Shown here in pieces: positions 967-49,591 of a stretch of DNA of 63,792 nt (the stretch's first letter is position 1; each line of letters opens with the position of its first letter). This DNA is from Chloroflexota bacterium (GTDB lineage: Bacteria > Chloroflexota > Anaerolineae > Anaerolineales > Villigracilaceae). Below the pieces are notes generated by a model, which was not told where the DNA came from, did no database searches, and saw nothing but the letters and a program-made list of their open reading frames with translations. Both the position numbers and the translations under genes were made by a program. Location: the NCBI GenBank assembly GCA_039932795.1, contig JBDTPH010000264.1:1-63792 (forward strand). Direction: 5' to 3'.

Positions 967-969
967 TTT

Positions 970-998
970 AGGGCGACCTAGCGGTCGCCTTTTTATTT
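970..998 (+). terminator. intrinsic terminator
   Basis: GGCGACC-TAGC-GGTCGCC followed by a T tract. Confidence 0.75.
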
Positions 999-1058
999 AT
1001 AGATTTGATATAATCTCAGAACGCAAGTTCTAAAAATCCAGAAAATCAAGAAGTTACA

Positions 1059-2618
1059 ATGAACCGCATATACTTTGGAGACAATCTCCCAATTCTAAAA
1101 AGCCTGGCGGACGAGTCAATAGACTTAATTTATATTGATCCTCCCTTCAATACAGGAAAAACGCAGAAACACACGAGGGTTAAGACTGTTAAGTCAAAGG
1201 ATGGTTCACGGATAGGTTTTCAAGGTAATACGTATGAAACTATTGAACTGGGGACAAAGGCCTATCAAGATTCGTTTAATTTTTTAGACGGTAAATCCAT
1301 TGATTCTGATATCGAAAAAGCCTATCAAAATTTAGCGCCCGAAGCTAGCCTATATTTCTTAGAAACATTTCTCAGACCAAGATTAGAGGAAGCATATCGT
1401 CTCTTAAAGCCTCACGGAAGCTTATATTTTCATATTGATTACCGCGAAGTTCACTATTGTAAGATTTTGTTGGATGATATTTTTGGCAGGGAATCGTTTT
1501 TGAATGAAATTGTGTGGGCATATGACTATGGTGGACGAGCAAAGTCGAAATGGCCAGCAAAACATGACAATATTTTGTTTTATGTAAAGAATCCTAAAAA
1601 TTACATTTTCAATACGGGTGAGATTGACCGAGAGCCTTATATGGCACCAGGTTTGGTTGGTCCTGAAAAGGCGCAGCGCGGAAAGCTACCAACTGATGTT
1701 TGGTGGCCAGGTCTCGTCGGCGCAAAAATCAACGAAAAATCTTCTAATTGGTATCTGAGAGGACAGAATACTACTTGGTGGCAAACTATAGTACCAACAA
1801 ATAGCAAAGAAAGAGTGGGCTATCCTACTCAAAAGCCACGCCGATTATTAGACAGAATTATTAAGGCTTCCTCAGCAAGAGGAAGTATAGTTTTGGACTT
1901 TTTCGCTGGTAGTGGAACAACAGGAGAAAGCTGCCTTGAATTGGGAAGAAACTTTATATTAATTGATAATAACGAAGCATCCATGGAAGTTATGGCGCGA
2001 CGATTTGCTGATGCCAAAAATATAGATTGGGTAAATTTCGATCATCTGCCTTATAAGCATTCTGAACAGGCCTATGAATTGAAACAATCAACTGATTTAC
2101 CATCCATAAAAAGAGATTTCATTTTGTTAGCCGCCACAGCTACTTACCTTCAGATAGAGCTCGAAGACTCTAATAGCCCGTGGGAAAACAGTCCGTTCGA
2201 ATGGATACTTGCATTACCAGCAAGAAAAAAAGGAAAGCTAGCCAGACAACTAGTAGCATCTTGGCTGGCAACTAAGGGAATTTCACACAAACTGTCGGGG
2301 GACTCGAGCGAAGCCCTGATAATAGGTGAGCATCGCTTCGCAATTAAATTCTCCACAATTTGGTCAAAAGGTTTTTATAAATTTCAACAGCTAAGATCTG
2401 ATGGCTATGATTATGTAATATGTCTTGGAATTTCGCCATTTGATGCACATTGCTGGGTTTTTGATCGAAGCTATGCAATAAAAAACGCGAAGAAACAACA
2501 TGCAACAGAATACTGGATGACAATAGACCCCGAAAAGCCACAGGATTGGGTCAAAGATTATGGTGGCACTTTAGACCAAGCCTTTCACAGATTAAGAAGC
2601 TTAATCAAAAAGCATTAG
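1059..2618 (+). CDS. beta-class N6A/N4C DNA methyltransferase fused to a C-terminal restriction-endonuclease-like domain with a degenerate active site
   Basis: DPPF motif IV, YPTQKP, DFFAGSGTT motif I; the C-terminal ~170 aa align over their whole length with the downstream ORF. Confidence 0.9.
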   Translation: MNRIYFGDNLPILKSLADESIDLIYIDPPFNTGKTQKHTRVKTVKSKDGSRIGFQGNTYETIELGTKAYQDSFNFLDGKSIDSDIEKAYQNLAPEASLYFLETFLRPRLEEAYRLLKPHGSLYFHIDYREVHYCKILLDDIFGRESFLNEIVWAYDYGGRAKSKWPAKHDNILFYVKNPKNYIFNTGEIDREPYMAPGLVGPEKAQRGKLPTDVWWPGLVGAKINEKSSNWYLRGQNTTWWQTIVPTNSKERVGYPTQKPRRLLDRIIKASSARGSIVLDFFAGSGTTGESCLELGRNFILIDNNEASMEVMARRFADAKNIDWVNFDHLPYKHSEQAYELKQSTDLPSIKRDFILLAATATYLQIELEDSNSPWENSPFEWILALPARKKGKLARQLVASWLATKGISHKLSGDSSEALIIGEHRFAIKFSTIWSKGFYKFQQLRSDGYDYVICLGISPFDAHCWVFDRSYAIKNAKKQHATEYWMTIDPEKPQDWVKDYGGTLDQAFHRLRSLIKKH

Positions 2619-2626
2619 AGACTTAT

Positions 2627-3178
2627 ATGACTGAAAATACACTTTCTCCCGAATTTGAACTTCTTTCAATCGCGGCAAAATTCATAAAACCCGAGTTCAA
2701 AAAAGCTGAGTCGCCTTGGGCAGACAGCCCATTTGAGTGGGTGTTGACTTTACCATCGGCTTCAAAAGGAAAACTTGGAAAACGATTAGTCTATCAGTGG
2801 TGTGCATTAAAAGGTCTCTCTATAGATAGTAGCCCCGATTCACAAGCAGATATGATGATTAATGGCCATAGGGTGGAAATCAAGTTTTCTACTCTTTGGG
2901 AAGCCAGCATATACAAGTTTCAACAGTTACGCGATCAAAATTATGAATATGCCGTTTGTTTAGGAATCTCTCCCTTTGAAGCTCATTGTTGGGTCATCAG
3001 CAAGAAGATACTAAAACAATACGTCATAGGGCATATGGGACAACATACGGGTTCTGGAGGTCAAGAGACGGCCTGGTTTGCGGTAAACCCTCAATCACCG
3101 CCTAGTTGGATCTTGCCGTGTGGCGGAACTTTAGAACAAGCTTATAAGGTCTTGAAAAGCCTTAGTAGTAAGAAATAA
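2627..3178 (+). CDS. putative PD-(D/E)XK restriction endonuclease
   Basis: SPDSQADMMINGHRVEIK (D-x8-E-I-K) motif; ATG 8 nt after the MTase stop; AT-rich like the MTase. Confidence 0.7.
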   Translation: MTENTLSPEFELLSIAAKFIKPEFKKAESPWADSPFEWVLTLPSASKGKLGKRLVYQWCALKGLSIDSSPDSQADMMINGHRVEIKFSTLWEASIYKFQQLRDQNYEYAVCLGISPFEAHCWVISKKILKQYVIGHMGQHTGSGGQETAWFAVNPQSPPSWILPCGGTLEQAYKVLKSLSSKK

Positions 3179-3207
3179 AATCTGCCCGAGTATCTCTCGG
3201 GCAGATT
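3179..3207. terminator. hairpin terminator between convergent genes
   Basis: AATCTGCCCGAG-TATCT-CTCGGGCAGATT, 12-bp perfect stem. Confidence 0.75.
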
Positions 3208-3213
3208 GCTGTT

Positions 3214-48520: not shown

Positions 48521-49591
48521 GTGGAAAAATTACCGCTCAATCAAATCCTGCATGGTGATTGCATCAAGATTCTCAAGGACCTGCCTAAGAACTCTGTGGA
48601 CTGCGTATTTGCCGACCCCCCTTACAACCTGCAACTGCATCATGACCTGTACCGCCCGGACATGTCCAAGGTGGATGCGGTGAATGACCACTGGGACAAG
48701 TTCAGCGATTTCGCAGAATATGACGAATTCACACGCGGGTGGCTATCCGCAAGTCAATGTGTGCTAAAGGAGACAGGCACGATCTGGGTCATCGGGTCGT
48801 ACCATAATATTTATCGAGTGGGTTCTATTATGCAAGATTTGGGATTCTGGATCCTCAATGATGTGGTGTGGTTAAAAATTAATCCGATGCCGAACTTCAG
48901 AGGCGTGCGTTTTACGAATGCTCATGAGACAATGATCTGGGCGCAGAAGAAAAAGGGCGCGAAGTATACTTTCAATCACCATTCGATGAAGAAGCTCAAT
49001 GATGATCTGCAAATGCGTTCCGATTGGACCATTCCCCTGGTCACAGGCAGGCACCGCATCATGTCCAACGGCACAAAGGCACATTCCACGCAGAAGCCAG
49101 AGGCACTGCTGTACCGGGTCATCATGGCGTCGTCGAATGTTGGGGATGTGGTGCTCGATCCGTTTTTTGGCAGTGGGACAACAGGTGCCGTAGCCAAGAA
49201 ACTCGGGCGGAACTGGGTGGGCATCGAACGCGACAAGAAATACATCAAGGTCGCGCAGAAGCGGATCGACGCGATCGGGCAGACGGATGAAGAGGCGATC
49301 AACGTTGAAAAACGGAAGCAGGCCCGCGTCCCGTTTGGGGCGCTGCTCGAAAACGGACTGCTCCAACCCGGCCAGCCACTTTACTTTGCTAAAAACAGCA
49401 TCAGGGCAAAAATCCTATCCAATGGGCATCTGCGCTGCGGGGATGTCACTGGGTCCATTCATGGAGTTGCAAAGGCATTGATGAACGGCGCGCCTGTCAA
49501 TGGCTGGGATATGTGGTTTTATAAAGATGAAAGTGGTACAAAGGTTGTTATTAACGAGCTGCGAGAAAAACTTCGTACGTCCAGGAGCTGA
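48521..49591 (+). CDS. CcrM/M.HinfI-like orphan adenine DNA methyltransferase (probable GANTC)
   Basis: DPPYNLQL, NPMPNFRG, HSTQKP, DPFFGSGTT; C-terminal RVPFG...GSIH...NGW domain. Confidence 0.88.
   Translation: MEKLPLNQILHGDCIKILKDLPKNSVDCVFADPPYNLQLHHDLYRPDMSKVDAVNDHWDKFSDFAEYDEFTRGWLSASQCVLKETGTIWVIGSYHNIYRVGSIMQDLGFWILNDVVWLKINPMPNFRGVRFTNAHETMIWAQKKKGAKYTFNHHSMKKLNDDLQMRSDWTIPLVTGRHRIMSNGTKAHSTQKPEALLYRVIMASSNVGDVVLDPFFGSGTTGAVAKKLGRNWVGIERDKKYIKVAQKRIDAIGQTDEEAINVEKRKQARVPFGALLENGLLQPGQPLYFAKNSIRAKILSNGHLRCGDVTGSIHGVAKALMNGAPVNGWDMWFYKDESGTKVVINELREKLRTSRS

Follow-up and report, generated by a model that had tools for sequence, protein, structure and literature searches.

A restriction-modification module of Anaerolineales in which the methyltransferase carries a dead copy of its MseI-like partner nuclease

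A two-gene module of a Chloroflexota bacterium encodes a beta-class DNA methyltransferase (MTase) that ends in a nuclease domain without its catalytic acids, followed by a stand-alone paralog of that domain (ORF2) in which the acids are retained. The module was studied in the window, the whole 63,792-nucleotide stretch of DNA that was analyzed. Our best reading, to which we assign a probability of about 0.45, is that ORF2 and the dead domain would form a heterodimer, tethered to the methylase, whose single active site would nick TTAA.

Both open reading frames lie as set out in the preliminary description, between two terminator-like hairpins (Table 1). The GC content of the module is 40.1%, compared to 45.9% and 52.8% for the flanking genes and 51.6% for the whole window, in agreement with the AT richness that had been noticed. 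The candidate promoter was read by eye; the promoter scan demands a -35 match, and the extended -10 is absent from its output. The stretch was recovered in one piece and with zero differences in a source-like sequencing run, which is not independent. In 8/9 same-genus relatives, the interval that separates the response regulator gene from the L,D-transpeptidase gene (window positions 967 to 3213; loci L186 to L195) holds another methylase on the opposite strand, the ninth locus stopping too early for its content to be judged. That methylase is an unrelated beta-class enzyme with a C-terminal extension, and the interval is a place where methylase genes are exchanged. At window positions 48521 to 49591 (+) lies a further beta-class methylase gene, whose product has a DPPY motif and is extended at the C terminus, with no nuclease among the adjoining listed ORFs; this product presumably resembles CcrM.

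Table 1. Features of the module and its boundaries (window positions)
Feature	Position	Strand	Evidence
Hairpin and T run, terminator-like, ending the upstream response-regulator gene	970..991	+	terminator scan
Perfect extended -10 (TGnTATAAT), candidate module promoter	1006..1014	+	read by eye
Beta-class N6/N4 DNA methyltransferase fused to pseudo-nuclease, 519 aa	1059..2618	+	PF01555, PADLOC, model
Intact catalytic motif IV (DPPF, D27-F30) of the methyltransferase	1137..1148	+	
TD-x-WW repeat insertion, variable, in the methyltransferase	1707..1778	+	alignment; low pLDDT in model
FAGSG, SAM-binding motif I, intact (F282-G286)	1902..1916	+	
Dead MseI-like PD-(D/E)XK domain, aa 348-519 of the fusion	2100..2615	+	homology, alignment
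ORF2, stand-alone MseI-family nuclease, 183 aa, ATG at 2627	2627..3178	+	PADLOC, alignment, model
Terminator-like hairpin, listed for both strands, separating the module from the convergent L,D-transpeptidase gene	3179..3207	.	

ORF2 is a PD-(D/E)XK-fold protein closely related to the type IIP enzyme R.MseI. Over residues 30 to 169 the two are identical at 76/140 positions (54%) without gaps, as counted by hand in the alignment supplement of PMC2441816 (this and the other PMC articles are cited for their accessible parts), and the matches include the D and E-x-K motifs as well as putative recognition motifs. MseI itself is placed among the PD-(D/E)XK enzymes, subtype P, in the same source (Orlowski and Bujnicki 2008). 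The ESM Atlas cluster nearest ORF2 is named "putative MseI restriction endonuclease," and ORF2 matches the PADLOC model REase_II PDLC03515 (E value of 1e-56), with both nuclease copies hitting one PADLOC type II REase model. Searches of Pfam and NCBIfam returned no above-cutoff family for ORF2, and a PDB sequence search returned only weak chance matches to rRNA methylases. The fold, which the preliminary description had made a test of its reading, was confirmed by Foldseek on a predicted model (pLDDT of 92.7), whose best Foldseek and VIA-align matches are PD-(D/E)XK enzymes: I-Ssp6803I (Z score of 12.4, rmsd of 2.6, 121 residues aligned), NhoI (Z score of 10.2, rmsd of 3.5, 117 aligned), and Eco15I (Z score of 8.3), with further matches to Hjc, PvuII, and EcoRV.

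The preliminary description had taken the last ~170 aa of the MTase to be a paralog of the next ORF. Residues 348 to 519 of the fusion are identical to ORF2 at 76/178 positions (43%; E value of 7e-56), and all of the shared motifs named at that time are present. The catalytic residues of ORF2 are D75 (GAT 2849), E84 (GAA 2876), and K86 (AAG 2882), and the corresponding codons of the fusion specify A419 (GCC 2313), A428 (GCA 2340), and K430 (AAA 2346); the codons and coordinates of the acids and their Ala replacements are exactly those first reported. The three acidic positions of the fused copy are R396, A419, and A428, with K430, QQ-x-R, and QH retained.

This loss of acids recurs. Among 118 long homologs of the fused domain, 114 are without both acids, 1 keeps Asp only, and 3 keep both, two of the latter resembling read-throughs of ordinary systems. 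The (D/E)XK acid is missing in 115/118 fusions and its Lys retained in 117/118, and a Glu in the core helix is found in none of the aligned dead domains. Among the best 120 of 1225 stand-alone matches, D75 and E84 are each present in 120/120 and K86 in 119/120. Since the dead-copy fusion recurs in >100 protein clusters, a paralog with lost acids is neither a chance pattern nor unique to one genome. A Glu beside the substituted Asp had been named as a residue that could keep the fused domain active. Rescue by this Glu (Glu418) was rejected as a general mechanism, as it occurs only in 76/118 fusions. P0237 and P0238, which resemble ordinary systems whose frame was extended or read through, were set aside, and P0417 was not counted as a second fusion origin because its cluster mixes fused and unfused lengths.

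Named matches are almost all from Anaerolineales or Chloroflexota, and the dead domains form a single clade (SH-aLRT of 100). In the family of the window, 29/400 sampled genomes carry a match: 14 have the dead domain with an intact partner, 4 have a broken or remnant partner, and 5 have no partner, the remainder being one dead/live chimera, one locus cut by a contig end, two unfused pairs, one TIR fusion, and one distant match. Such a patchy distribution is usual for restriction-modification (R-M) systems. Apparent decay in G699 was treated as an assembly error, with frameshifts in the MTase and both flanking genes, and L057, which ends at a contig edge, was set aside. Plasmid and viral contig searches each gave zero matches, and a search with an MseI-family profile in 401 genomes from the phylum of an actinomycete gave single matches in just 3. 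A distant stand-alone homolog occurs in 16 cyanophage records; a stand-alone MseI-like gene whose motifs are intact is present in cyanophages S-BM3, S-RIM14, and S-ShM2 (L018:3001-3390), and no methylase is annotated near the gene in the one record opened, that of S-BM3. Two short contigs labeled Thiotrichales and Draconibacterium (L004 and L005) carry the module with Anaerolineales flanking genes and are probably misbinned.

The N-terminal ~330 residues of the fusion are a beta-class N6/N4 methyltransferase (PF01555, E value of 2e-44; PADLOC MTase_II PDLC03300, E value of 4e-131) with the motif order of that class, motif IV (DPPF) ahead of motif I (FxGxG). In the alignment, its target-recognition motifs are identical between fused and unfused systems. 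A TD-x-WW insertion of about 13 to 45 aa in the recognition region is found in one subclade of the fused MTases, and the unfused MTases are without it. In a tree of 40 methylases, the 25 fused ones form one clade (100/99), which loses its exclusivity once the sister-lineage methylases described below are added. The predicted structure of the fusion has two domains, the N-terminal helix of the dead domain being modeled with low confidence.

The stand-alone copy departs from MseI at one position. Residue 52 of ORF2 is Lys (AAA 2780-2782) where MseI has the core-helix Glu, and Lys occupies this position in 120/120 partners among the best 120 of 1225 stand-alone matches. An acidic residue in the core helix of PD-(D/E)XK enzymes is canonical but not universal; it is present in MseI and in the unfused Chloroflexota and Acidobacteriota systems examined. 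In Eco15I the equivalent Glu is essential, an alanine variant having abolished activity (PMC11347163). Of 150 MseI-family representatives, 82 have the helix Glu (79 with both acids and 3 with Glu only), 39 have none of these residues, 18 have both acids without the Glu, and 11 are gapped. ORF2-type partners belong to the minority class of 18. The 39/150 include P0263, P0268, P0270, P0267, P0246, and others, and degenerate active sites are thus common in stand-alone MseI-family proteins. In the tree, the loss of the Glu is placed before the duplication with weak support (84). Because Lys stands at this third catalytic position, the stand-alone nuclease may be attenuated, and because 39/57 scoreable representatives without the helix Glu have lost the other acids as well, the partner may not cut at all. 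However, invariant D75 and E84 beside an acid-less paralog argue that metal-dependent chemistry is retained in the partner, possibly in weakened form. The preliminary assumption of a fully active stand-alone copy is therefore uncertain.

We examined selection on the dead domain and its dependence on the partner by comparing fusions with and without an adjoining nuclease. In NhoI and Eco15I, which are homodimers, most dimer contacts run through the N-terminal helix, and the contacts to DNA come from strand beta4, the beta7-8 hairpin, and the linker that precedes the core helix (PMC11347163). The conserved set comprised 36 positions kept in at least 16/17 paired fusions (unique loci), and these were divided into 13 predicted DNA-facing and 23 core positions by analogy to NhoI and Eco15I at 13 to 16% identity, the division being made after the alignment had been viewed. 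All 19 paired fusions keep 11 to 13 of the 13 predicted DNA-facing positions. In contrast, five partner-less fusions keep 7, 4, 3, 3, and 2 of them, with 19 to 22 of the 23 core positions and 126 to 141 of 147 conserved MTase positions still in place. These five sit in two separate supported clades, indicating at least two independent losses, and the net charge of the dead domain ranges from 0 to +10 in paired and from 0 to -11 in partner-less fusions. The exception is a sixth partner-less fusion (L121), which keeps 12/13 predicted DNA-facing residues, as do three fusions with partner remnants; recent loss of the partner would explain all four. At the L121 locus, a HEPN-domain gene (L121:4303-5259) stands where the partner nuclease would be. 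Because DNA-facing residues are lost and the core is kept in 5/6 partner-less fusions, the predicted DNA-binding face of the dead domain probably serves something that involves the nuclease, and a role in MTase specificity is unlikely.

The N-terminal, dimer-type helix is kept in both copies in the window with a similar hydrophobic pattern. It also persists in partner-less fusions, and its conservation therefore does not single out a heterodimer. The mean dN of the dead domain (0.40) is about twice that of the MTase (0.23) and the partner (0.20). No dN/dS ratio could be computed because synonymous sites are saturated (0/136 pairs with a dS of <1.5 in all three domains). The preliminary description had named a fusion confined to one genome and evolving neutrally as a ground against its reading; the fusion is widespread, and the retention of the 36 positions despite saturated synonymous sites was read as purifying selection.

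A sister system was found at four loci from three other Anaerolineales families (L115:3723-5870, L116:3659-5854, L117:3680-5891, and L118:3669-5894). Each contains a divergent caspase-like gene, a methylase, a second methylase, and a nuclease with Lys or Ala at position 52 and no helix Glu; the dead nuclease copy is absent. The first methylase has intact catalytic motifs and an altered recognition loop, and in the second the DPP motif has become KPP or SLP, the SAM motifs are mostly eroded, and the ancestral loop is retained. This composition suggests a split methylase dimer with one catalytic and one dead, DNA-reading subunit. In both branches one paralog of a dimeric enzyme has been retained in dead form, which suggests division of labor after duplication, and the four loci also demonstrate the existence of Lys52 nucleases that have no dead nuclease copy as a partner. 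L084:4347-5183 (-) joins a TIR domain to a dead MseI-like domain from the clade of the fused dead domains, with no adjoining methylase, and L009:33-695 is a single fusion with a nuclease domain of the dead type in front and of the partner type at the back, likely a chimera formed by deletion between two paralogs; P0232 looks alike. Possible intermediates are P0396 and P0231, which keep Asp only, and P0233, which has both acids with Lys changed to Arg. The clade preserves the steps in a series: some members are plain methylase and nuclease pairs, others have lost the helix Glu, and one fusion has lost only a single acid; fusions with a dead nuclease, pairs with a dead methylase, and eroded fusions that have no partner make up the rest.

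Of the three functions proposed earlier for the dead domain, the tethered heterodimer fits best. We infer that the N-terminal helix would join the fused domain to the stand-alone nuclease on DNA and that either subunit would read one half of a TTAA site, the target being taken from MseI. With one active site per pair, such a complex would nick rather than cut both strands simultaneously. On foreign DNA, a double-strand break would need a second binding event in the flipped orientation, and scattered unmethylated host sites would receive repairable nicks with the methylase already present. The pairing would also tie cutting to methylation. The arrangement likely arose when a dimeric enzyme was duplicated and the copies then divided the work between them. 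The catalytic asymmetry between the stand-alone and fused copies argues for the heterodimer, as does the apparent dependence of the predicted DNA-facing residues on the presence of the partner. The nearest restriction enzyme structures, NhoI and Eco15I, are homodimers, and retention of the N-terminal helix is consistent with pairing of this kind. The dead methylase paralog of the four sister loci provides a parallel. A BbvCI heterodimer with one inactivated subunit does nick DNA, as described in PMC3017599. However, several observations stand against a heterodimeric nickase: the partner is without the helix Glu and may not cut, L121 and the three remnant-bearing fusions keep their predicted DNA-facing residues, the sister loci have a Lys/Ala-52 nuclease without a dead copy, and the division into DNA-facing and core positions is post hoc. 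In addition, natural nickases invariably recognize nonpalindromic sites according to PMC3017599, and TTAA is a palindrome.

The target also bears on these readings. MseI cuts at T^TAA. In 20- to 40-kb samples from 37 genomes (2/60 fetched stretches having been dropped as too short), no clear avoidance of TTAA or of any other 4- or 5-mer was found; the mean observed/expected ratio of TTAA was 0.81 in 8 carriers and 0.77 in 14 noncarriers, so that the site is not more avoided in carriers, which argues against the nickase. The ratio is 0.96 in the genome of the window itself.

A broader form of the heterodimer reading is possible rather than probable: a dimeric nuclease would have been split into a live subunit and a methylase-borne dead subunit, the obligate complex nicking a palindrome with a single, noncanonical active site of the Lys-helix kind, the sister lineage would have made the mirror split of the methylase dimer, and type IIP pairs would thereby have become coupled asymmetric machines.

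Unlikely, but the best placed of the alternatives, is that the dead domains borne by the methylase dimer form homodimers and sit on unmethylated TTAA with nuclease-like affinity, so that the free nuclease is kept off host DNA and the methylase is held nearby, with no stable contact to ORF2. Shielding or targeting of this kind equally predicts loss of the DNA-facing residues after nuclease loss, fits the dimer helix retained even in partner-less fusions, and is compatible with Lys52-type nucleases that exist without a dead copy and can thus act alone. However, a clamp around the site would be expected to hinder the methylase too, and cross-pairing would be expected between two coexpressed paralogs whose dimer helices are similar.

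It is quite doubtful that neither copy cuts, the change from Glu52 to Lys having already disabled ORF2 and the complex acting as a roadblock or regulator that binds its specific DNA site and is turned off by methylation. The essential Glu of Eco15I, the frequent joint loss of helix Glu and the other acids, and the lack of detected site avoidance would all agree with this, and restriction by inactive enzymes through binding alone is mentioned in PMC2441816. Nevertheless, the invariance of D75 and E84 in the 120 partners while the paralog decayed acts as an internal control, and 18 family representatives likewise keep both acids without the Glu.

A type IIE-like scheme, in which a dead dimer would bind a second copy of the site and activate an ORF2 homodimer, is very doubtful. 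In type IIE enzymes cleavage needs an effector domain bound to a second site, and in Sau3AI this part is played by an inactive second PD-(D/E)XK domain (PMC5766183); a weakened Lys52 partner could need activation, and the scheme would suit DNA-facing residues kept only while the partner is present; against this, the Sau3AI effector is fused to the nuclease, the dead copy in the window is fused to the methylase, and no conserved extra interface was identified. That the dead domain supplies or changes methylase specificity, as had been proposed, or is a slowly decaying relic is highly improbable, since an open frame, a core kept even in partner-less genes, and a twofold-faster rate are outweighed by MTase recognition motifs that do not differ between fused and unfused systems, an MTase that stays conserved while the DNA-facing residues erode, and the 36 positions kept at synonymous saturation. 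Alternatively, the dead domain may inhibit the nuclease, the third of the functions proposed earlier.

A nuclease that recognizes a frequent 4-base site endangers a new host, and how such systems become established is understood only in part. If the tethered heterodimer is true, a methylase-borne dead subunit would provide control with no need of a regulator gene, and it would be the natural equivalent of the nickases so far engineered from heterodimers. The question is directly testable because both proteins are small and ORF2 is 54% identical to a commercial enzyme.

Compared to known systems, the module is closest to the type IIP system of MseI, in which a beta-class amino-methyltransferase likewise adjoins the nuclease. 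In contrast to MseI, the methylase in the window carries a further, dead nuclease domain, and Lys replaces the helix Glu in the nuclease; both the activity and the site of the pair are predictions. Type IIP systems have separate genes for the MTase and a homodimeric nuclease, whereas here the MTase chain includes a second nuclease domain. The closest solved folds, NhoI and Eco15I of the BisI family, I-Ssp6803I, and PvuII, share only 12 to 16% identity with the nuclease and are homing enzymes or homodimers that lack a fused methylase, and the BisI family cuts methylated DNA. In the type IIC/IIG enzymes (MmeI, BpuSI, and BtgZI), nuclease-fold and methylase domains also share one chain, but the nuclease is active and mostly N-terminal to a gamma-class MTase (PMC4081073). 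In the fusion, the MTase is beta-class and N-terminal and the nuclease domain is dead, so that the one chain combining an active nuclease with an MTase that defines these types is lacking. The layout fits neither the standard type IIP nor the IIG arrangement, as the preliminary description had stated. Sau3AI (type IIE) also has a duplicated PD-(D/E)XK domain of which one copy is inactive yet DNA binding, but both copies lie in one MutH-like, monomeric nuclease chain (PMC5766183), whereas in the window the live copy is a separate gene. A literature search, with most subscription papers, patents, and REBASE outside its reach, returned no description of a dead nuclease carried on a methylase. BbvCI and Bpu10I (type IIT) have two paralogous nuclease subunits of similar size, and inactivation of one gives the engineered nickases (PMC3017599). 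In those enzymes both sites are naturally active, the recognition site is asymmetric, and there are usually two MTases (PMC4081073); in the window the sole MTase bears one of the subunits, which is naturally dead, and one copy alone keeps the acids in place of the two different catalytic sites of type IIT. The module is a real, conserved variant of type II R-M, and its mode of action would resemble that of a IIT-derived nickase tied to its own methylase.
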